34,397 nt of DNA, from the IMG/VR virus record IMGVR_UViG_2541047966_000009; one strand, 5' to 3'. Positions 5,339 through 34,397 of the stretch are shown one piece after another. Numbering within the stretch: position 1 is the first letter of the stretch; each line of letters begins with the position of its first letter. The translations under genes and the position numbers were made by a program. Under the pieces are notes generated by a model, which saw only the letters and a program-made list of their open reading frames with translations, did no database searches and was not told the origin of the DNA. The DNA comes from a virus. Taxonomy: Duplodnaviria; Heunggongvirae; Uroviricota; Caudoviricetes.

Positions 5339-7803
5339 CAGCTGTACTCCTTACGTTGTTTCTGAGCCAGCAGACGCTCCAGCATTTTTTCCAGCTCATG
5401 CAGGCTCATATTCAGGGCACCAGTCAGCCCGGCAGGCGCTGCGGTTTCCTTACCATTGAGGAAAAACTGAGGATTAAAGCTGACCTGGATACCGCCAGAC
5501 GCTCCACCGCCAGTTGCCGTTGCACCACGGCCTGAATATCCGGCAGCCATGATTTTCGGCGACGGGATACGGGGAACATCCGGTGTCATTTCAGCGGCCA
5601 GGCGCTGCCCGGCCAGTGCAGCAAGCGGAGTGGTCCGTTGCAGGCCAATGGCGGCACCCTGCGCGATATTGTCACCAAAGCCCATAAACACGCGACTCGG
5701 TGAATGGATGCCCAGCTTTTCGCTGAACCAGTCACTGATGCTGTCACCCATTCCGGTTACGCTGGTTTTGAGTGACGCCCATTTGTTTCTGATGCCATTT
5801 ATCAACCCGTCAATAAGATGACCACCGAAGTCGGTGAATTTCGCCGGCAGATCAACGCCGAGATATTTCAGCGCAGCCGCAAAGGCTTTATAAAGCAGAC
5901 CAGCCGGAGACCAGTTAACCAGCAGTTTACCAATTCCCACGATGCCGCCGTTAAAGGCTTCCTGAATGTCAGCCCAGCGCTGTTTAAACCAGCTACTGAC
6001 TGCGCCCCAGTTGCGGTAGATAAGGTAAGCTGCTGCCGCGACGGCGGTGATAACGAGACCGATGGGATTCATCAGCAGCGCCCGGCCAATCCAGAGAACG
6101 GCACGCCCGGCGCTCATAATTCCGCGAACCAGCCCCCCTGAGAGCACACCACCCAGTGTTCTGGCTCCTCTGGCGACAGCACCAAAGCCTGTCACCAGCC
6201 AGCGGAGTTTACCGCCTTCCCCCAGTGCGAGCGTCAGACGAAGCCAGTTGGCCCGAAGTAAAACAGCATTTTTCCAGACGCTTACAAAGGGGGAAAGAAG
6301 GAGATTCAGCCCAAGCTTGAGACCGATAGTGGCCATCCTGAAAGCGAGTAATGCGCCCACAACCTTTATGGTGCTGCTGACGAGCTGCGGATTTGCCGCT
6401 ATCCATTTGCCAACACTGTCCATTAAAGGAATAAATGTTTCACCCAACTGGAGCAAAGCCGGACGCAAGGATTGCCCGATGCTGATAGCAGAATCATTAA
6501 AGCCGATCTGCATTCTGCGCCAGCGACCTTCAAGCGTATCATTCTGCTTTGCAGCATCCTTATCCAGGGTAGAAATTGCAGCCGGAGCATTCATTTCCTG
6601 CTTACTGGAAAGGTATTTATCCCAGCCCTGTCGCATTGACAGTAAATGGTTGACAGTCTGAATATCGGTAAAGACCTCAGCCAGACCAAATGACTCCATG
6701 AGTTTCTGCTGACCTTCCTGATCGCCTCTTGCTCCTGCAGCTTTCCATTGCTGCAAGAACGCTTTGCCTTTACTGTCGATAAAACGGTTGGCAATCATCA
6801 GTGAAGCTTCGTACTGCGAAAAACCCTGAGCGACGTAATTCTGCATTGACCCCTGGTAATCCACCCCGGCTTTAGCATATTTCTGGATGGTATCTCCGCG
6901 GCCCATTGCTGCCAGCCAGTTGGACATATTGGTGACCGCTTCCTCTGCAGAGCCACTACCTTTACCGACCTCCAGACTGGCAACAATCTGGGTAATCGCA
7001 TCTTTTCCATAAATACCACGAGCAGCGAAGGCTTTAGCCATACCGGGTAATGCTTTTGCCATATCCTTCAGCTCAAATGACCCAAGTTTGGCTCCTGTTG
7101 CCGCAATACCAAACGCCTGTTCAAGTTCTTTCGCATCAGTGATTCTGAGTGCATCGCTGAAGGCATAAGTCATTTTGGCAAGGTCGGTCATATCGGCTTT
7201 GGTTGCTGTAGCGGTCTTTCCAAGCATCTCTGCAAACGTTGCTGCCCGTTCGGGGGCCATACCATCAGCAACTAATTGTCCGACTCCCCCTAACAGAGAC
7301 TCCTGCAGTTGGTTAACCTTCAGCGAGGCCTGTCTGATAGCCTGGCCAATTGCACGTTCCTGTTTTGCATCCAGGTCTCCTGTGACACTGATATCCCGCA
7401 ACTGTGATTCAAACGAGGCATATTGTTTAACCGAGGCCATGACCGGTGCGCCCAGCGTTCTGCCAATAGCATAGGTTTCTGCACCCTGACCATAGAGCGC
7501 CAGGCGGTTAGCCTTCAACGCATCACCGGTGGCTGATACTGCTGACAGACGGCGCTGCTGACGTTCAATTTGCTCCATGGTGCGGCTTACCCGCAGCAAC
7601 TCGCTGTTGAGATGCTGCATCCGGGAAGAACCCAGTTGACCATAACGTTCTGTTGCCCGGGTTAAGGCATTCTGGCGTTCCTGCAGACGGCGGGAGGTAT
7701 CACCAAGGGAATCAAGGGCGCGTCGGGTGCCACTGACGGCTGAGCGGAAGCTGCTCCCGACAATGCCGCCAATAATGACGCCGACTGAAAATTCACTGGC
7801 CAC
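5338..7803 (-). CDS. tail tape measure protein
   Basis: 821-aa ORF, largest in tail module; Ala/Gly/Leu-rich with hydrophobic segments; GTG start preceded by GAGGA. Confidence 0.8.
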   Translation of the reverse strand: MASEFSVGVIIGGIVGSSFRSAVSGTRRALDSLGDTSRRLQERQNALTRATERYGQLGSSRMQHLNSELLRVSRTMEQIERQQRRLSAVSATGDALKANRLALYGQGAETYAIGRTLGAPVMASVKQYASFESQLRDISVTGDLDAKQERAIGQAIRQASLKVNQLQESLLGGVGQLVADGMAPERAATFAEMLGKTATATKADMTDLAKMTYAFSDALRITDAKELEQAFGIAATGAKLGSFELKDMAKALPGMAKAFAARGIYGKDAITQIVASLEVGKGSGSAEEAVTNMSNWLAAMGRGDTIQKYAKAGVDYQGSMQNYVAQGFSQYEASLMIANRFIDSKGKAFLQQWKAAGARGDQEGQQKLMESFGLAEVFTDIQTVNHLLSMRQGWDKYLSSKQEMNAPAAISTLDKDAAKQNDTLEGRWRRMQIGFNDSAISIGQSLRPALLQLGETFIPLMDSVGKWIAANPQLVSSTIKVVGALLAFRMATIGLKLGLNLLLSPFVSVWKNAVLLRANWLRLTLALGEGGKLRWLVTGFGAVARGARTLGGVLSGGLVRGIMSAGRAVLWIGRALLMNPIGLVITAVAAAAYLIYRNWGAVSSWFKQRWADIQEAFNGGIVGIGKLLVNWSPAGLLYKAFAAALKYLGVDLPAKFTDFGGHLIDGLINGIRNKWASLKTSVTGMGDSISDWFSEKLGIHSPSRVFMGFGDNIAQGAAIGLQRTTPLAALAGQRLAAEMTPDVPRIPSPKIMAAGYSGRGATATGGGASGGIQVSFNPQFFLNGKETAAPAGLTGALNMSLHELEKMLERLLAQKQRKEYS

Positions 7804-20620: not shown

Positions 20621-21338
20621 AACTGCTGCCTCCCCATGTGAGATATCGCGGTGCCAGTTCGCGCAGGATGCGCTGCGGATAATGGCGGTTCTCCCGCCAG
20701 CTGGCCGCATTGCGTCCGGCATTCACCGTGGCGACATGTCCGAACCAGCGGGTGCTGTCCAGACCTTTCTGTGATGCAAGCCGCCTGTCCCGTTGTACCC
20801 AGCCCAGACCACCGTTATAGCCCGACAGTGTCATGGCCATACGCTCGCAGTCGTTGGCGGCGCTTACGCGCTGCCACAGCCAGCGGTCATAGCTGACCAG
20901 CGCCCGGATAGCCCATGCAGGATTAAACGGCTCACGACTGCTCAGCATCGGTATCAACTGGCTTATCCAGTCGGCAGTGGCAGGCATGAACTGCGCCAGT
21001 CCCTGAGCGCCAGCCGGCGAGACCGCATCAGGTCGCCAGCCGCTTTCCTGATGCAGTTGCGCGGCGAAATCGGCCACCGGCGCAGACAGTCCCCATTCAA
21101 GCCGGGCATTACGGATCACATCATCGCGATACTGCAGCGCAGCCTGCGGAGGCTGCGCTGCGCGGGCCTGACTGAAGAAGCCGCCACACCAGAGCAGCCA
21201 GACAATCACCAGGTTGCCAGCAAGCTGCCACCAGAAGCTGTATTTATCGTTACGTGGTTCTCCGTGCCTGATGGCGGTTACGCCCAGACCAAAGGCGAAC
21301 AGAATAATGAGGGTGATTTGAGGCCAGTTCATGGTCAC
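20604..21338 (-). CDS. endolysin: lytic transglycosylase (SLT domain) with N-terminal membrane/SAR-like segments
   Basis: SLT catalytic region ...AAQLHQESGWRPDAVSPAGAQGLAQFMPATA...; N-terminus has two hydrophobic stretches; sits between holin-like and spanin genes. Confidence 0.75.
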   Translation of the reverse strand: MTMNWPQITLIILFAFGLGVTAIRHGEPRNDKYSFWWQLAGNLVIVWLLWCGGFFSQARAAQPPQAALQYRDDVIRNARLEWGLSAPVADFAAQLHQESGWRPDAVSPAGAQGLAQFMPATADWISQLIPMLSSREPFNPAWAIRALVSYDRWLWQRVSAANDCERMAMTLSGYNGGLGWVQRDRRLASQKGLDSTRWFGHVATVNAGRNAASWRENRHYPQRILRELAPRYLTWGGSSCVASG

Positions 21339-21685
21339 AGTCCTGTTGCCACAGCCAGACAGACCGCTGCAACAATCAGTGCACGGCGGATTAACGCAGC
21401 AGAAAATACAAGGTGAAGGCCGGTCTGCACAGGGAAACGCCCTTCAGCCATCAGTCTGTCGTCATGTTTCAGGTACTGACCGGGACGGGCTTTGGGGAAG
21501 AGCGAACGGTCAAGCCAGTAACCCAGCACTGCTGCCAGCGTGATGAGTGCCAGCTTGTAGATCACAACAGGCAACTGCTGTGGCGAGACCAGAGCGATGG
21601 TGCCCAGCAGCAGCACTGAGGTCAGCAGCCAGCCGCTGAGGCGAGGTTTTTTAACAGGGGGAATGAATTTTTTCAGGTTTTTCAT
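21335..21685 (-). CDS. putative holin/pinholin (3 predicted TM segments)
   Basis: Start at ATG (MKNLKKF...) preceded by strong SD GAGGAG; three hydrophobic segments; first gene of lysis cassette, overlapping endolysin start. Confidence 0.5.
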   Translation of the reverse strand: MKNLKKFIPPVKKPRLSGWLLTSVLLLGTIALVSPQQLPVVIYKLALITLAAVLGYWLDRSLFPKARPGQYLKHDDRLMAEGRFPVQTGLHLVFSAALIRRALIVAAVCLAVATGL

Positions 21686-21932
21686 GTGTGTCTCCTCGTT
21701 TGGTGGAGACAGCATCACAAATGTGGCGGGATACGGATTTTAAACAGCGTTAATAGTGAAGATGTAAACGTGCACTGCATGATGGCTTTGAAAGAACGAC
21801 CAGCCCGGTACCCGAACACCGGGCTGGCCATCGCCCCACAGGAATGCGCTGTGAGCCGACCAAGGTTCAGTCAGTCTCGCGAGACCAGACTAGCCTGCCA
21901 TATTTTTTATAATTGTAAAAGGCTTACAGATT
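21686..21932. promoter_or_regulatory. divergent intergenic region: candidate late-operon promoter (leftward) and dam promoter (rightward)
   Basis: 247-bp non-coding gap between divergent holin and methyltransferase genes; contains perfect 10-bp inverted repeat CCAGCCCGGT-n8-ACCGGGCTGG at ~21800-21827 and AT-rich TTTTTTATAATTGTAAAAGG before dam. Confidence 0.4.
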
Positions 21933-22703
21933 ATGAAAATGCAGACATTACCCATCGTTCCATGGATTGGTGGCAAACGCCGCCTTGCAAAACACATCCT
22001 GCCGCTGTTTCCGGCGCATGAATGTTATGTGGAGCCGTTTTGTGGGGCAGCAGCGCTCTATTTTCTTAAGGTACCCGGCAAGATCGAAGTCATTAATGAT
22101 ATCAACGGTGAGCTGGTGAACCTGTATCGGGTGGTAAAACATCATCTGGAAGAATTTGTACGCCAGTTCAAATGGGCGCTGGTCAGCCGGCAGATCTACA
22201 AATGGCTGCAGATCACCCCGGAAGAAACACTGACGGATATCCAGCGTGCAGCACGGTTCTACTACCTTCAGAAGCAGGCGTTTGGGGGCAAGGTGGCGGA
22301 GCACAGCTTTGGTACCTCCACCATATCCCCGCCACGCTTCAACCTGCTGCGTATTGAAGAAGAACTGTCAGCGGCACACCTGCGGCTTTCCAGAACGGTC
22401 ATAGAACACATGGACTGGCAACAGTGCATAGAACGATATGATCGCCCGCATACGTTGTTCTACTGTGACCCTCCATACTGGGGAACGGAAGGTTATGGTG
22501 TGGAGTTCGGACTAGAAAATTATGATCATATGGCAGATTTAGCACGCAGGATCAAAGGGAAGATGATTATATCGGTGAACGATATCCCGGAAATGCGGCA
22601 GGCATTCAACGGTCTAAATATTCAGTCGGTTGATATCAGCTACAACCTCAAGATCACTGGCAAATCCAGTCGCAAGAAGGAACTCATTATCCTCAACTTT
22701 TGA
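21933..22703 (+). CDS. DNA N6-adenine methyltransferase, Dam-like, apparently orphan
   Basis: 256-aa ORF; SAM-binding motif EPFCGAAALYF near N-terminus and catalytic DPPY (FYCDPPYWGTEGYG) near C-terminus; no adjacent restriction endonuclease candidate. Confidence 0.8.
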   Translation: MKMQTLPIVPWIGGKRRLAKHILPLFPAHECYVEPFCGAAALYFLKVPGKIEVINDINGELVNLYRVVKHHLEEFVRQFKWALVSRQIYKWLQITPEETLTDIQRAARFYYLQKQAFGGKVAEHSFGTSTISPPRFNLLRIEEELSAAHLRLSRTVIEHMDWQQCIERYDRPHTLFYCDPPYWGTEGYGVEFGLENYDHMADLARRIKGKMIISVNDIPEMRQAFNGLNIQSVDISYNLKITGKSSRKKELIILNF

Positions 22704-23898
22704 CCGAATAGTAAGACTTCATGCAGTGAATCAAGTACTGCATGAAGTCAAGGGCTGGTTTTGTGTACCAAAAATAAACAGTGATAGCGGTAATAATTCC
22801 CATAACTAGAACACCACGTATAATCCAGAACGTACGTTTCTGCGTGTCTAGTCGCGCAGAAATACTGCTAAATACACCAGCCACGTCATCTTTAATGAAG
22901 GAATATTCCTTATTAATCTGTTTTTCTTTGTATTCAATTTCTTCGCCTAAGGCCTTTATAGATTGCATCTGGTTCGAAAGTGCCAGCCAGATTAACGTTG
23001 CAGCAAAAATGCATCCCAGAAGAATTATTGTGTTTGTTATCCCTTGGCCTGACCATTTCGTAGCCACTTTGAATTGGGTAGCTACGATAACAGAGGCAAC
23101 AGGAATGCCAAGTATATGGTTCTGGATATCTGAAAACGCTTTGTGGATTTTACCCATTTCTTCGACTTTTGCAGCACGCAGTTGATCCATTACTTTGTCA
23201 TAAGAGAATCCAGAAGAGTAGATACGATACCCTTTCAGAAACTTTTCATGCAGACGCTGAATATTGTCCAGTAAATAAGCGAATACTAGAGGTGAATCAA
23301 TTCCATCACTAACTGCTTGAATACTTTCAATCAGAATATCTAGCTTCTGATCCTTATGGGTATCATCATTGAAACAAGCTATAAGGTTATCAAGATACTC
23401 CCTTTGCAAATTTTGTACATTTTCTGCAGCGAAGTGCGGTAATAGCTTGATAACTTCTTTTTTCAGAAAAACTAACTGACAAGTTGAGTTATCAAAGTAG
23501 GCCGCGGCCTCTTTTAGCAGGTTAACGAACTCGAGAATCTTCCGGTAGTTGCTGATGAAAACGGGGATATCTTCATCATCATTACGAAATTTTGTTTCTA
23601 GGATGAAGTAATTAGCTGGCTCAAGGCACTGATGCTTTGGAGCATTTAGCAATTTTTCATGGGTGGAAAACACAAGTCCCAGTCCACTCCGTGGTGACGT
23701 CACACGTAGGATGATCGTGTTACCTGGAGCGATAGTGCCTGTATCAATAGAAAGACCATATTCACGAGGATCATCAAGCAAAGTATCAACCAGATCACAA
23801 TCGGACTGATCTAAGAGCAACAGCGAACCGACACGAAACCCCTCTTGGAATTCCATACGACGATACAGAGCTGTCAGCATCTCAAATGAAATCGCCAC
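22693..23898 (-). CDS. membrane protein of unknown function (large N-terminal soluble domain, two C-terminal TM helices); candidate effector
   Basis: 401-aa ORF, AT-rich; GTG start 2 nt after NdpA-like stop (coupled), internal ATG 18 nt later; hydrophobic ITNTIILLGCIFAATLIWLAL and TFWIIRGVLVMGIITAITVYFWY near C-terminus; no recognisable catalytic motif. Confidence 0.6.
   Translation of the reverse strand: MAISFEMLTALYRRMEFQEGFRVGSLLLLDQSDCDLVDTLLDDPREYGLSIDTGTIAPGNTIILRVTSPRSGLGLVFSTHEKLLNAPKHQCLEPANYFILETKFRNDDEDIPVFISNYRKILEFVNLLKEAAAYFDNSTCQLVFLKKEVIKLLPHFAAENVQNLQREYLDNLIACFNDDTHKDQKLDILIESIQAVSDGIDSPLVFAYLLDNIQRLHEKFLKGYRIYSSGFSYDKVMDQLRAAKVEEMGKIHKAFSDIQNHILGIPVASVIVATQFKVATKWSGQGITNTIILLGCIFAATLIWLALSNQMQSIKALGEEIEYKEKQINKEYSFIKDDVAGVFSSISARLDTQKRTFWIIRGVLVMGIITAITVYFWYTKPALDFMQYLIHCMKSYYSVKS
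22715..22749. other. perfect 13-bp inverted repeat (hairpin) at the convergent dam / membrane-protein gene ends
   Basis: GACTTCATGCAGT-gaatcaagt-ACTGCATGAAGTC, starting ~12 nt after the dam stop and overlapping the last codons of the minus-strand 401-aa gene; no adjacent U-tract. Confidence 0.4.
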
Positions 23899-23900
23899 GA

Positions 23901-24908
23901 TTAAACCTCAGTCATCCACATTTCCCTAAATTCTTCAGGTACATTACGTAGGGTGATAATATTTGTTTCCGGATCATAATCAATATAGCCTTCAGTTTTC
24001 CCTTCCCGGTCAAACTTAAGTTCCCAATATTTAGACTTGCCTTTAAAAGATACCAGAGCCCGAATGACTCGACCATCAGGAACGAAGCCATCCGATAACT
24101 CCAACTCTTCAGCAGCAAGTTTACCAGATAACTCCTCGGGAGCCTGGGGCCAAATGGCATTAACAAGGGTTTCAAGACTAAGTGGTTCACCAGCCTTACT
24201 TAGTGCATGTAAGTGTTCAAACGCATTCTTAAGAAATGCATCTTTTTCAGCGCCGTCAAGTCCTTTCTCTGCCGCAAATGCTTTTAAAACGTCACGTAAC
24301 TTTTCAGACTCTCGTTTGGCGATTAAGACATCATTACAGCCTAGGAACTGTTTAAAATAGTTTGAAACATTACCTTGCCCCTTAAGAAAACTGATATAGC
24401 GCTCTGCGCCACTTTCCCACGCGGTTAAGTCAATGCGCCCAGCCATACGCAGCTTAGCAATATCAAGATAGGTACTATCTTGGATGTTAAAATCATCTGT
24501 GACAGTGGACCCAATGGTAGCGCTTACAATAGCTATCAACAGGTGTTCATTGTGTCCTATCACGATATTTGCAAAAAGAACATAACCACCAGTAGCCATG
24601 TTTTCTCGCTGAGAACGTTCCGTCAGGTGATGCATCATTCGGCAGGAACTTTGGTAGAAATCATCAACACCTTCGAGAAAGTCCCCAGCCATTCGTTCCA
24701 TAGGATAGTTATCCGTATCGCCTTCAAAATAGCCATAACCTTTACCTGTGCGTCCTGCATATTTTGCACAAATATCGTTTATAAGGCGCTGAGAGGCTTC
24801 AGTAACTAGACCTTCTTCAGGACTCAATCTCTCAGAAGCGTCTCCATTTTGTTGTTTGTCTAAAATGTGAACTACAACGTGTTTAACTTCAATGGTCTGC
24901 TCAGACAT
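23901..24908 (-). CDS. divergent NdpA/YejK-family nucleoid-associated protein homologue
   Basis: 335-aa ORF (same length as E. coli YejK); recalled family similarity in ...GGYVLFANIV..., ...STYLDIAKLRMAGRIDLTAWESGAERYISFLKGQGNVSNYFKQFLG... and C-terminal ...YDPETNIITLRNVPEEFRE; SD AAGGTGG 8 nt upstream; AT-rich. Confidence 0.6.
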   Translation of the reverse strand: MSEQTIEVKHVVVHILDKQQNGDASERLSPEEGLVTEASQRLINDICAKYAGRTGKGYGYFEGDTDNYPMERMAGDFLEGVDDFYQSSCRMMHHLTERSQRENMATGGYVLFANIVIGHNEHLLIAIVSATIGSTVTDDFNIQDSTYLDIAKLRMAGRIDLTAWESGAERYISFLKGQGNVSNYFKQFLGCNDVLIAKRESEKLRDVLKAFAAEKGLDGAEKDAFLKNAFEHLHALSKAGEPLSLETLVNAIWPQAPEELSGKLAAEELELSDGFVPDGRVIRALVSFKGKSKYWELKFDREGKTEGYIDYDPETNIITLRNVPEEFREMWMTEV

Positions 24909-24978
24909 TGGCTATCCACCTTATTTTTTATTGCTTAATGGCAAATAATTTCTGCTATATGTTCTCGTTAGGAACACA

Positions 24979-25386
24979 TTAACCCACATTTTTTAACCGC
25001 TCAATCGTTGCGGATAATTCCTTCAGTTGTTTTTCCATCTCAATCACACGCTGTTTTTCTTCAGCGCCTCGCATGAGATCTCGCCGAACCTCAGGATCTA
25101 ACTGGTTTAGAAGTTCAAGCATTTTAAGGTCTGACGGGCTGAATTGATGTTGTGTTGGTACAGCAACAATTTCTTTAGATGGAATATGTTCTTTACCGGT
25201 AAGTAGCCAATCGATCGATACACCCAAATGGGCACTTAGCGCAACAAGAGCCTCTGCGTTTGGTTCTCTCTCTCCACGCAAATAGTTTTGAAGTGAGCGA
25301 TATGGAATTTTTGATAAGTCAGATAATGCCTTTATTGTCATGCCATTAGCATCCATCACTTCACGCAATCTCTCTTTTGTACTCAT
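24979..25386 (-). CDS. prophage repressor, XRE-family HTH
   Basis: Start at ATG MSTKERLREVMDANGMTIKALSDLSKIPYRSLQNYLRGEREPNAEALVALSAHLGVSIDWLL (HTH at N-terminus), coiled-coil C-terminus; divergent from Ner-like gene; ORF-track TTG start at 25482 unlikely. Confidence 0.7.
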   Translation of the reverse strand: MSTKERLREVMDANGMTIKALSDLSKIPYRSLQNYLRGEREPNAEALVALSAHLGVSIDWLLTGKEHIPSKEIVAVPTQHQFSPSDLKMLELLNQLDPEVRRDLMRGAEEKQRVIEMEKQLKELSATIERLKNVG

Positions 25387-30175: not shown

Positions 30176-30706
30176 ATGGCAAAAAGTACAAAAGGTGCAA
30201 AACGTATCAAGGCCGCAGCAGCACTCTGGGTGCCGGGGACACGTGAAGAGGTCATTGAGGGCATCAGACTGCTCGGTGACGCACACCGTGAACTGGTCAG
30301 GGCTGAAACAGAAATGAATGACGCCATTGGCGATATCACCGCACGTTATGCCCCGCTCACCGAGAGCCTGAAAAAACGCATGGCCGAACTGCAGTCCGGT
30401 ATTCAGACATGGTGTGAGGCACACCGTGATGAACTGACCGGCAACGGGAAGGTGAAGTTCGCTAACCTCACCACCGGCGAGGTGCAGTGGCGAAACCGTC
30501 CGCCATCAGTCAGTATCCGTGGGGCGGATAATGTTATTGAATTACTGAGACGTCTGGGGCTTGAGCGCTTTATCCGTGTAAAGGAGGAAATAAATAAAGA
30601 CGCTATCCTGAATGAAAAGGACGCCGTGAAAAATATTCCCGGTATTACCATAAAAAGTGATATTGAGGATTTTTCAATAATTCCTTTTGAGCAGGATGTG
30701 CAGTAA
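30176..30706 (+). CDS. gam: host-nuclease inhibitor Gam (Mu Gam family)
   Basis: 176-aa ORF (Mu Gam ~174 aa); basic N-terminus and coiled-coil-like core; position after A/B as in Mu. Confidence 0.7.
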   Translation: MAKSTKGAKRIKAAAALWVPGTREEVIEGIRLLGDAHRELVRAETEMNDAIGDITARYAPLTESLKKRMAELQSGIQTWCEAHRDELTGNGKVKFANLTTGEVQWRNRPPSVSIRGADNVIELLRRLGLERFIRVKEEINKDAILNEKDAVKNIPGITIKSDIEDFSIIPFEQDVQ

Positions 30707-30803
30707 ACACACCACGTTAATTATTTAATAAAAACATTTTCTTTTTTATTCCGGCGTCAGCGCCGTGGGCTTCTGCACGCCGGAAACAGAGGAGAATTAA
30801 ATT

Positions 30804-30998
30804 ATGATATTTAAATGTATTCAGTGCGAGAGGGATATAACAGCCCTGCGTTTTCACAGCGCCATCGCCGTGATGTCCGGTAAGTACCACGTACCTGCAG
30901 TACGTGTCACCCTGGTCTGTCCGTACTGCAGCCAGCATTTTTCGGCGGACGTGCCCGTCATGGAATTCTCCCGCCCTGACAGGGAGGACGCGCAATGA
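30804..30998 (+). CDS. small zinc-ribbon-like protein
   Basis: 64-aa ORF with two CxxC pairs (CIQC ... CPYC); SD GAGGAG upstream. Confidence 0.45.
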   Translation: MIFKCIQCERDITALRFHSAIAVMSGKYHVPAVRVTLVCPYCSQHFSADVPVMEFSRPDREDAQ

Positions 30999-31267
30999 TT
31001 ACCCCACAGGAAGCACGACAGCGCACCCGAACTCTTGTTGAACACTATGTCAACGAGTGTGAATGCCGCGACCTCACCGATGTGAAGCACGTCCTGACGG
31101 CGCTAATCAGCATGGCCACGCAGGCCATTGTGGCAACCAACGGAAAGGAGGCTGCCCTGCAGGTACTGATGAACACACTCACCCACACGGCAGAGCACGA
31201 GGTGCCGTACCGGGTGGAAACCACTGCAGAAGGCGGCCTGAACATCACCGTCGACCGGAAACACTGA
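30995..31267 (+). CDS. hypothetical small early protein
   Basis: 90-aa ORF overlapping previous stop (ATGA). Confidence 0.45.
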   Translation: MITPQEARQRTRTLVEHYVNECECRDLTDVKHVLTALISMATQAIVATNGKEAALQVLMNTLTHTAEHEVPYRVETTAEGGLNITVDRKH

Positions 31268-32167: not shown

Positions 32168-32847
32168 CAGACCAGGATAAGCACATTGAGAAACTGAAAA
32201 AGTTGCTGGCGCTGGCAGCATCCGGCAACCCGCATGAGGCTGCTCTGGCACTGCGCCGCGCCCGTAAACTGATGGATGTTCACGGCATCACACATTCCGA
32301 CATCGCCATGAGTGATATTGATGAAACCATCAGTCACTACTGGCCGACAGGCAGCCTCCGTCCGCCGCGCTACATGCTGGGCCTGATGAACATCATCCGC
32401 GAGGCATTTGGTGTTAACTCCATCATTCACCCCGGCACATATCCGGGTGTGGGGTTCTACGGCAACCGGGAACGGGCCGCACTGGCCGCGTACACCTGGG
32501 AAGTGCTGGCCCGTCAGCTGAAAAAGGCGCGTCAGCAGTATATCAGTGCACAGAACAAAAGAATAAAAACCGCCACCCGCACCAGCCGTGGAGACCAGTT
32601 TGCTGAAGGCTGGGTGCTGGCCGTTATCAGTGAAATACAGTCCTTCGCCCTGACCGATGACGAACGTGAACTGATGCAGCAGTGGCTGGAACATAAATAC
32701 CCGCAGACGCAAACCACCAGGGCGCGTAAACCGGGAAGAAGTCGCAATGGCGACGCCTCGCGCTATGCGGGGTTTCGAGAAGGGCAGAACGTCAGACTGC
32801 ACCGACCGGTCAGTGGGCGGGAACAGCAGAAACTGGAGGCCAGATGA
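32164..32847 (+). CDS. conserved phage protein with DUF2786-like N-terminal domain
   Basis: 227-aa ORF; N-terminus HIEKLKKLLALAASGNPHEAALALRRARKLMDVHGI matches the pattern recalled for DUF2786. Confidence 0.5.
   Translation: MTDQDKHIEKLKKLLALAASGNPHEAALALRRARKLMDVHGITHSDIAMSDIDETISHYWPTGSLRPPRYMLGLMNIIREAFGVNSIIHPGTYPGVGFYGNRERAALAAYTWEVLARQLKKARQQYISAQNKRIKTATRTSRGDQFAEGWVLAVISEIQSFALTDDERELMQQWLEHKYPQTQTTRARKPGRSRNGDASRYAGFREGQNVRLHRPVSGREQQKLEAR

Positions 32848-34082: not shown

Positions 34083-34397
<315 letters not shown>

Follow-up and report, generated by a model that had tools for sequence, protein, structure and literature searches.

The stretch of viral DNA analysed here, 34,397 nucleotides (nt) long (IMG/VR record IMGVR_UViG_2541047966_000009; hereafter the window, with positions counted from its first letter), is a Mu-like prophage of Escherichia coli, and it carries on its minus strand two adjoining genes, the first for a nucleoid-associated protein (NAP) of the NA37/YejK family and the second for a membrane protein of 401 amino acids (aa), which is the subject of this work. 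The late genes of the prophage (tail, head, terminase and lysis) are read leftwards and the early genes (ner-like, DUF3102, DDE transposase, ExeA/B-like, Gam and Mor) rightwards, and the space between the two blocks is taken up by the repressor and the pair (first the NA37 and then the 401-aa gene), all on the minus strand, followed by a convergent Dam-type methylase. The pair is considered below as a candidate two-gene antiphage system of the kind represented by DS-1 and by type II PANGU, and its features, together with those of the adjoining genes, are collected in Table 1.

Table 1. Coordinates of the gene pair, its predicted parts and its neighbours in the window (DMK, DNA-mimicking; HTH, helix-turn-helix; ORF, open reading frame; TM, transmembrane).
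Feature	Coordinates	Strand	Basis
401-aa DS-1B/Pag2B-like membrane protein (RefSeq WP_001007984.1, annotated 'hypothetical protein')	22693..23898	-	ORF list
NA37/YejK-family nucleoid-associated protein, 335 aa, candidate sensor (DS-1A/Pag2A-like; RefSeq WP_021576853.1)	23901..24908	-	
Junction: GAGG Shine-Dalgarno 23909-23906, NA37 stop TAA 23903-23901, 2-nt spacer	23899..23909	-	Sequence reading
N-terminal cytoplasmic alpha/beta domain, aa 1-212, candidate NAP-binding ('DMK'-like) module	23263..23898	-	
Most conserved block, aa 232-280, including the weakly hydrophobic helix 262-280	23059..23205	-	Alignment
Strong TM helix, aa 287-309	22972..23040	-	Hydropathy
Charged helical hairpin between the strong TM helices, aa 310-355	22834..22971	-	
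Strong TM helix, aa 356-378	22765..22833	-	Hydropathy
HTH (CI/Cro-type) prophage repressor	24979..25386	-	Pfam HTH_3 E 3e-12, Phage_CI_repr E 3e-6; RefSeq coordinates
Orphan Dam-type N6-adenine methyltransferase	21933-22703	+	Pfam MethyltransfD12 E 7e-28; PADLOC MTase_II E 4e-115

The 401-aa ORF, which had been pointed to in a first, sequence-only reading of the window, is present in the ORF list, where the minus strand, left unstated in that reading, is added. The gene is a real one: in a search of 1.84 billion proteins, the family profile has matches with 1316 cluster representatives (E<=1e-3). Its GTG start (23898-23896) stands exactly where it had been placed, two nucleotides (23900-23899) past the stop codon of the NdpA-like, i.e., NA37, gene, and its Shine-Dalgarno sequence lies 7 nt 5' of the GTG, within the end of the NA37 gene. 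An alternative ATG is found at codon 7 of the ORF; the GTG is the likely start, because the residues F5 and L8 are near-invariant in the homologues. The coupled translation that had been proposed from this spacing fits the layout, which is what translational coupling needs, and overlapping or abutting junctions are kept across the family, so that the two genes would be translated as a coupled pair.

DS-1, the DefensePredictor discovered system 1 of E. coli (unit D390), is one of 42 validated systems; it was brought into MG1655 on a clone that kept the native promoter, and its result was marked as replicated (DeWeirdt, Mahoney & Laub, Science 2026, PMC13092281). In the screen of the same work, the -log efficiency of plating was 7.6 for Bas1, 2.7 for Bas26, 1.7 for both Bas3 and T3, 1.0 for T5 and 0.9 for T7. 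The protein DS-1A (WP_000355468.1) has 391 aa, with a Cys-rich N-terminus (MDITCLECG...CDKCG) and the NA37 domain at aa 42-382, and its partner DS-1B (WP_000150292.1) has 404 aa and is annotated as 'hypothetical' (PMC13092281). By BLASTP, the 401-aa protein shows 23% identity to DS-1B over 302 aa (E 6e-10) and the NA37 protein of the window 23% identity to DS-1A (E 7e-9). The hidden Markov model of the 401-aa family scores DS-1B at 54.9 bits, with the motifs DTHxxQKL, FSYDK and IPxA aligned, and the motifs of the conserved block appear in DS-1B as FSVNK and SNQTKALTIPGA. Both DS-1 and the window have the NA37/YejK gene first and the transmembrane partner of about 400 aa second, with the same 2-nt gap (221777/221780 in DS-1 and 23901/23898 in the window), and DS-1B resembles the 401-aa protein in being soluble in its N-terminal part and in having its C-terminal hydrophobic helices split by a charged stretch. 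By their sequences, both genes of the window are distant homologues of this validated two-gene defence system, from which their clade, that of phrog_5023, differs in being prophage-borne and in the identity of only about 23% for both proteins.

The family searches agree with this relationship. The 401-aa protein matches the PHROG family phrog_5023 with E 2e-142 and the NCBIfam model NF053869 (DS1_2_antiphage) with E 3e-21 and 75.9 bits, at aa 74-366 against positions 31-329 of the 337 of the model, and this model is matched by 53/53 sampled family members, with the best E at 3e-29. The NA37 protein matches the model NF053868 (DS1_1_antiphage, a 'nucleoid-associated anti-phage protein') with E 1.6e-17 and 63.5 bits at aa 33-258. 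The search of Pfam with the 401-aa protein gave a noise-level SoxE_N match only, and the search of the phage collection with the pair by megablast gave no match, while tblastn of the same collection returned distant relatives only, in six records, which include the Klebsiella phage Kp4865-4, the Sinorhizobium phage phi2LM21, contigs of the Acinetobacter phage MD-2021a and gut phage contigs. Neither WP_001007984 nor WP_021576853 was found in those parts of the DefensePredictor tables that were accessible.

The anatomy of the 401-aa protein was traced in an alignment of 53 family sequences (29-87% identity to the query), with the transmembrane segments called by hydropathy, i.e., by the Kyte-Doolittle scale with a 19-residue window and a rough sum on the Hessa scale. 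The segment 287-309 is the strongest (Kyte-Doolittle peak 2.33, mean of the 53 members 2.22, Hessa sum -2.35 kcal/mol), followed by 356-378 (1.95, 2.02 and +1.13 kcal/mol, respectively) and by the weaker 262-280 (1.62, 1.21 and +6.34 kcal/mol); the hydrophobic segments are kept in 53/53 members, and 287-309 is hydrophobic in every one. Two strongly hydrophobic helices had been described at the extreme C-terminus, and both are present; however, they are not adjacent, being set apart by a 46-aa stretch holding 8 K/R and 8 D/E, with a further 23 aa as a tail after the second, and the count of two had missed the weak third segment 262-280, which is part of the most conserved block. The N-terminal portion is soluble, as had been stated, but its length is about 260 rather than 280 aa. 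The best-conserved block of this alignment, FSYDK...HKxFSDIQNxILGIPVAxVIVATQxK (aa 231-277), runs into the weak hydrophobic helix, in which P266 and K277 are invariant, and the polar residues N309, Q310, E320, R349 and Q353 are invariant in the 53-sequence alignment, with N289 nearly so.

The AlphaFold2 model of the 401-aa protein, built with the family alignment, has a mean predicted local distance difference test score (pLDDT) of 82.7 and is laid out as an alpha/beta domain ending near aa 155, a run of short helices that reaches aa 211 and three long helices (213-275, 284-331 and 333-378), and aa 1-215 modelled alone reach a pLDDT of 93.9 and a predicted template modelling score of 0.88. The N-terminal fold is confident and without a solved structural relative, the nearest, weakly similar ones being the LAGLIDADG/WhiA-like alpha/beta units; the sequence and profile search of the Protein Data Bank (PDB) with the 401-aa protein gave no match, and the Foldseek search of PDB with the full-length model gave nothing below E 0.3. 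The region of aa 1-260 carries a net charge of -11 at an isoelectric point of 5.0, with a family mean charge of -7.6 +/- 3.5. By analogy with the systems discussed below, the N-terminal domain is probably a module binding the NAP sensor, which had not been recognised in the sequence-only reading.

The partner protein belongs to the NA37 family over its whole length (Pfam NA37, E 6e-81), starts with MSEQTIEVKH, has the NA37 domain from aa 12 and can be aligned from one end to the other with 9be2_A, a solved chain of YejK (E 7e-30). The YejK dimer was described as a DNA clamp, in which the pore residues R173, R176 and K177 matter for DNA binding (Schumacher et al., NAR 2024, PMC11229321; PDB 9be2). 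The E. coli YejK (NdpA) has the same length as the NA37 protein of the window, is likewise acidic overall, and its N-domain, C-domain and C-terminal dimerisation arm all align, with the basic residues of the C-domain and the arm among the matched positions and the region of R276, R280 and K284 roughly kept. However, YejK is encoded by a chromosomal housekeeping gene, whereas the NA37 protein of the window is a paralog that scores 186 bits against the NCBIfam YejK model, under the cutoff of 341 bits, and is always coupled to the membrane partner.

This coupling is kept across genomes. In a locus scan with one genome per species, relatives of the 401-aa protein were found at 55 loci of the Gamma-, Beta-, Alpha- and Deltaproteobacteria and of single Acidobacteriota and candidate phyla radiation (CPR) bins, and 50 of them have a same-strand NA37 gene as the next gene upstream. 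Of the five others, three are Cupriavidus copies that are truncated, one lies at the end of a contig and one is a weak fragment. At 47 of the 50 paired loci, the junction has a gap of no more than 2 nt or an overlap of 1-32 nt. The pairwise distances of NA37 and partner proteins are correlated with r = 0.94 (Mantel p = 0.001, 46 loci), much of which shared descent alone would yield. The three Cupriavidus copies (L042, L043 and L044; match 6001-6606) hold the C-terminal half only (aa 191-392, 44% identity) and have no NA37 neighbour; they may be degraded remnants or may represent the membrane module used alone.

The mode of action of such pairs has been approached with the PANGU systems, composed of a YejK-like NAP (PagA) and an effector (PagB), of which the type II has Pag2A and Pag2B, the latter with an acidic, DNA-mimicking (DMK) domain at its N-terminus and a transmembrane domain at its C-terminus (bioRxiv 10.64898/2026.04.06.716658, April 2026). 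The type II systems were found in E. coli and across phyla, in bicistronic arrangement with the genes less than 40 bp apart. In E. coli, the plating of T4 was reduced by 3-4 log with both genes needed, neither Pag2A nor Pag2B was toxic alone, the kinetics were those of abortive infection, and the denA (EndoII) mutants of T4, which no longer degrade the host DNA, escaped the system (10.64898/2026.04.06.716658). Moreover, GFP-Pag2A left the nucleoid in infected cells, and Pag2A was bound by the DMK domain with a KD of 19 nM, while the way in which Pag2A engages and activates Pag2B was left open by the authors (10.64898/2026.04.06.716658). The window pair likewise has a YejK-like NAP in a bicistronic operon with the 2-nt gap, and a C-terminal transmembrane domain on the partner, as judged by hydropathy. 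It differs in setting, since the PANGU candidates were picked by linkage to defence islands, whereas the window pair occupies a cargo slot in the immunity region of a prophage.

From the homology to DS-1 and the architecture of Pag2B, the 401-aa protein is quite probably the effector, embedded in the membrane, of a two-gene system of the DS-1/type II PANGU kind that is carried by a prophage and acts by abortive infection, and the pair is to be regarded, at its identity of about 23%, as a new divergent member of this already known immune kind. The YejK-like protein would sit as a dimeric clamp on the host chromosome, as is known for YejK, and would be freed in the course of an infection, as the phage breaks down or remodels the nucleoid, which was reported for Pag1A and Pag2A. 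The freed NAP would then bind the acidic N-terminal domain of the 401-aa protein, as the DMK domain of Pag2B does, and the long stalk of three helices would relay the binding to the segments in the membrane, also three in number. Through a pore, a leak or depolarisation, the latter would impair the inner membrane and end the phage production in the infected cell, an action which we infer for every member of the kind. In this way, the pair would protect the host and the prophage against other phages. The sequence-only reading had likened the protein to membrane-disrupting abortive-infection effectors, and its first half, that of a defence effector with an NA37 partner, is supported by DS-1 and Pag2B, while the membrane disruption itself stays a predicted step. 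Homology to a structural or lysis protein, which that reading had named as an argument against it, was found in none of Pfam, PHROGs and Foldseek.

Several points weigh against this assignment. The function is extrapolated over a long distance, because the NCBIfam scores are far below the cutoffs and the identity to DS-1B is only 23%. The equivalog cutoff of DS1_2_antiphage (315 bits) is not reached by the 401-aa protein, nor is it neared by any of the 53 family members, and the 401-aa protein is therefore a homologue rather than an equivalog of DS1_2; the NA37 protein does not reach the cutoff of DS1_1_antiphage (330 bits). DS-1A has a zinc-ribbon-like, Cys-rich N-terminal extension, which the NA37 protein of the window lacks. 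In the alignment with YejK (aa ~170-180), the residues R173, R176 and K177 are replaced by Q, a gap and N, and therefore the DNA binding may differ from that of YejK; the replaced basic patch may mean altered DNA binding or an altered signal. The N-terminal portion is only moderately acidic (39 D/E against 28 K/R in aa 1-260), so that DNA mimicry of the type II PANGU kind is putative here, and the membership of type II PANGU would be drawn from the architecture and not from the sequence of Pag2B. PADLOC v2 has no model for the pair, and no experiment on the clade of the window was found in the literature. Finally, distant hosts such as Chitinimonas, Jeongeupia, Rhodoferax and Alishewanella have the pair in an equivalent position within their Mu-like prophages, which would also fit a role in the phage life cycle.

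A more far-reaching version of the proposal is that the prophage clade of phrog_5023 (about 1300 clusters at 50% identity) constitutes a distinct type of NAP-gated membrane effector, beyond a mere orthologue of DS-1B or Pag2B, which we regard as doubtful. In such a type, the N-terminal domain may be a specific receptor for the closed NA37 clamp rather than a DNA mimic, and the continuous three-helix stalk, with its invariant polar ladder within and near the membrane segments (Q275, K277, N289, N309 and Q310), may form an oligomeric gated pore of a novel type. The sensor devoid of the R173/R176/K177 patch may read a signal other than the bulk loss of the nucleoid, such as the replication intermediates of Mu-type or other phages, and the pair behind the repressor may feed into the lysis-lysogeny decision of its own prophage, as RexA does.

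The comparison with the Rex systems leads to an alternative for the whole pair, which is rather unlikely in our estimation, namely that what the NA37 protein detects, and detects directly, is a phage-made DNA structure or a protein-DNA complex, as has been proposed for RexA of lambda, and not the loss of the host nucleoid, and that the membrane partner is an ion channel which the NA37 protein then opens. RexA/RexB of lambda, RexABpp, Sbash and CarolAnn combine a dimeric, non-specific DNA-binding sensor with an inner-membrane effector, lie just downstream of the prophage repressor, are expressed in lysogens and act by abortive infection via membrane damage, and the window pair is alike in outline. 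The order of repressor, DNA-binding protein and membrane protein mirrors that of lambda cI-rexA-rexB and of the Pseudomonas putida RexABpp, with the window pair downstream of the repressor on the same strand, a resemblance of position only; both the YejK N-domain and RexA are reportedly similar to RdgC and to a fold of the kinetochore Cenp-N/Chl4 type, which is a weak link. Direct sensing is also favoured by the ranges of phages: DS-1 protects against Bas1, Bas3, T3 and T7, while PANGU-Ecu gives no protection against T1 and T5, though both degrade the host DNA (10.64898/2026.04.06.716658), and therefore the trigger is not simply DNA degradation in every member. However, neither Pfam nor PHROGs gave a RexA or RexB family match for the window pair, and RexB is a small protein with four transmembrane segments and no large cytoplasmic domain, whereas the 401-aa protein has a cytoplasmic part of 260 aa and two to three such segments. 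Membership of the Rex family was rejected for the lack of sequence homology; Rex is taken here as what the pair works like.

The gap between the repressor and NA37 genes is 70 nt with no terminator-like site within, a weak promoter-like site is seen at 25043..25014 (minus strand) in the 3' end of the repressor gene, and read-through transcription from the repressor into the pair is possible in lysogens. The pair is probably expressed in lysogens from the immunity region of the Mu-like prophage. As to the repressor itself, its start is ambiguous, since the ORF from TTG 25482 gives 167 aa and the RefSeq annotation 135 aa. It varies among otherwise closely related prophages, in which the pair stays at about 80% identity, and no repressor match was found at the loci L003 and L004.

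A role in the life cycle of the mobile element itself would have the NA37 protein regulate or assist the element (by silencing, transposition-replication or a bias of the lysis-lysogeny switch), with the membrane protein as its anchor or regulator, and it is improbable. The constant immunity-proximal position in the Mu-like prophages of distant hosts speaks for it, as does the lambda RexA, which is reported to bias the lysis-lysogeny switch as well. An NA37 paralog, NdpA2, reportedly controls, by the title of the work, the transfer of the integrative and conjugative element PAPI-1 of P. aeruginosa. However, of 5426 complete E. coli genomes, 645 have the related prophage backbone and only 19 of these the pair, identical or nearly so, with unrelated cargo elsewhere, and the cloned DS-1 and PANGU systems give protection on their own, with no prophage present. 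The pair also moves among unrelated prophage types and a non-prophage island: the Citrobacter, Salmonella and Morganella relatives occupy the moron site of lambdoid prophages, flanked by the Q antiterminator gene and the holin gene, on one strand or the other, and the Paraburkholderia relatives are near an Mrr-type nuclease and a MazE gene. Such varied positions are typical of a mobile accessory cassette rather than of a core phage gene.

In the window, the pair and the repressor form an island of low GC (0.38-0.44, with the flanks at 0.55-0.60), and the cargo slot corresponds to the interval between the holin and the repressor, 21719-24978, in which other strains carry unrelated uncharacterised genes (compared at L065:2699-5225, L066:2699-4997 and L067:2687-5651). 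The searches of Pfam and PADLOC with this alternative cargo, aimed at NA37-like and known defence genes, gave no significant match except for a DUF2441 protein, and two P-loop-like cargo proteins had weak, below-cutoff matches to AAA_30; the alternative genes may be further uncharacterised defence cargo of prophages. One of them is a 328-aa ORF that overlaps the stop of the repressor gene by 4 nt.

The mobile-cassette behaviour also argues against a part in lysis, and the idea that the 401-aa protein alone acts as a holin, antiholin or blocker of injection in superinfection exclusion, with the NA37 link incidental, is very improbable. It draws on the lysis cassette (holin 21335..21718 and an SLT endolysin) that adjoins the gene here, on the holin next to the pair in the lambdoid prophages and on the name 'phage-related membrane protein' given to some homologues in the source annotations. 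However, no holin, spanin or Sie family match was found in Pfam or PHROGs, the window prophage already has its own holin, endolysin, lipoprotein and membrane protein, and the Citrobacter and Salmonella pairs are antisense to the lysis genes. The NA37 coupling is near-universal with the two proteins co-diverging, and a cytoplasmic domain of 260 aa is not holin-like.

A relationship to Kiwa, with the C-terminal module as a KwaA-type membrane sensor, is hardly credible and membership was rejected, because the PADLOC KwaA match at aa 262-394 (E 8e-5) recurs in only 2/53 family members, so that the lead was dropped, neither Pfam nor PADLOC gave a KwaB/DUF4868 signal in the partner, and the Foldseek search of PDB had nothing below E 0.3, and although KwaB, a cytoplasmic partner acting on DNA beside the membrane protein KwaA, resembles the NA37 protein in this respect, the Kiwa gene order kwaA-kwaB is reversed relative to the window pair.

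Some further observations concern the neighbouring genes. The orphan methyltransferase gene converges on the 401-aa gene with an overlap of their 3' ends by 11 nt, and it is also present in relatives without the pair, e.g., in EC958. A gene for a Gam-family inhibitor of host nucleases lies at 32176-32706 of the locus L064, which corresponds to about 30176-30706 of the window, and a local GC dip to 0.46 is seen at 30501-31000 of the window. In the strain MS20655 (L064:36245-39149; ~34100-34397 of the window and beyond), the prophage borders at its Mor end on a short gene fragment and on a torS pseudogene with a frameshift, which suggests that this prophage transposed into or beside torS.

The NAP-based immunity has been described only in 2025-2026 with DS-1 and PANGU, and for the membrane-effector type, the key question is that of the action of the transmembrane partner and of the way in which the NAP switches it on. 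For this question, the window pair offers a natural, prophage-borne, strongly diverged and clean two-gene cassette with a confident N-terminal model and a handful of invariant positions within the membrane module, and it adds a structural and positional parallel to the lambda RexAB. Such systems would be exchangeable cargo of the immunity region of Mu-like prophages and of the Q-holin site of the lambdoid ones, missed by the searches of defence islands, and several hundred entries named 'hypothetical' or 'phage-related membrane protein', together with their neighbours named 'nucleoid-associated protein', may be relabelled as a candidate defence pair.

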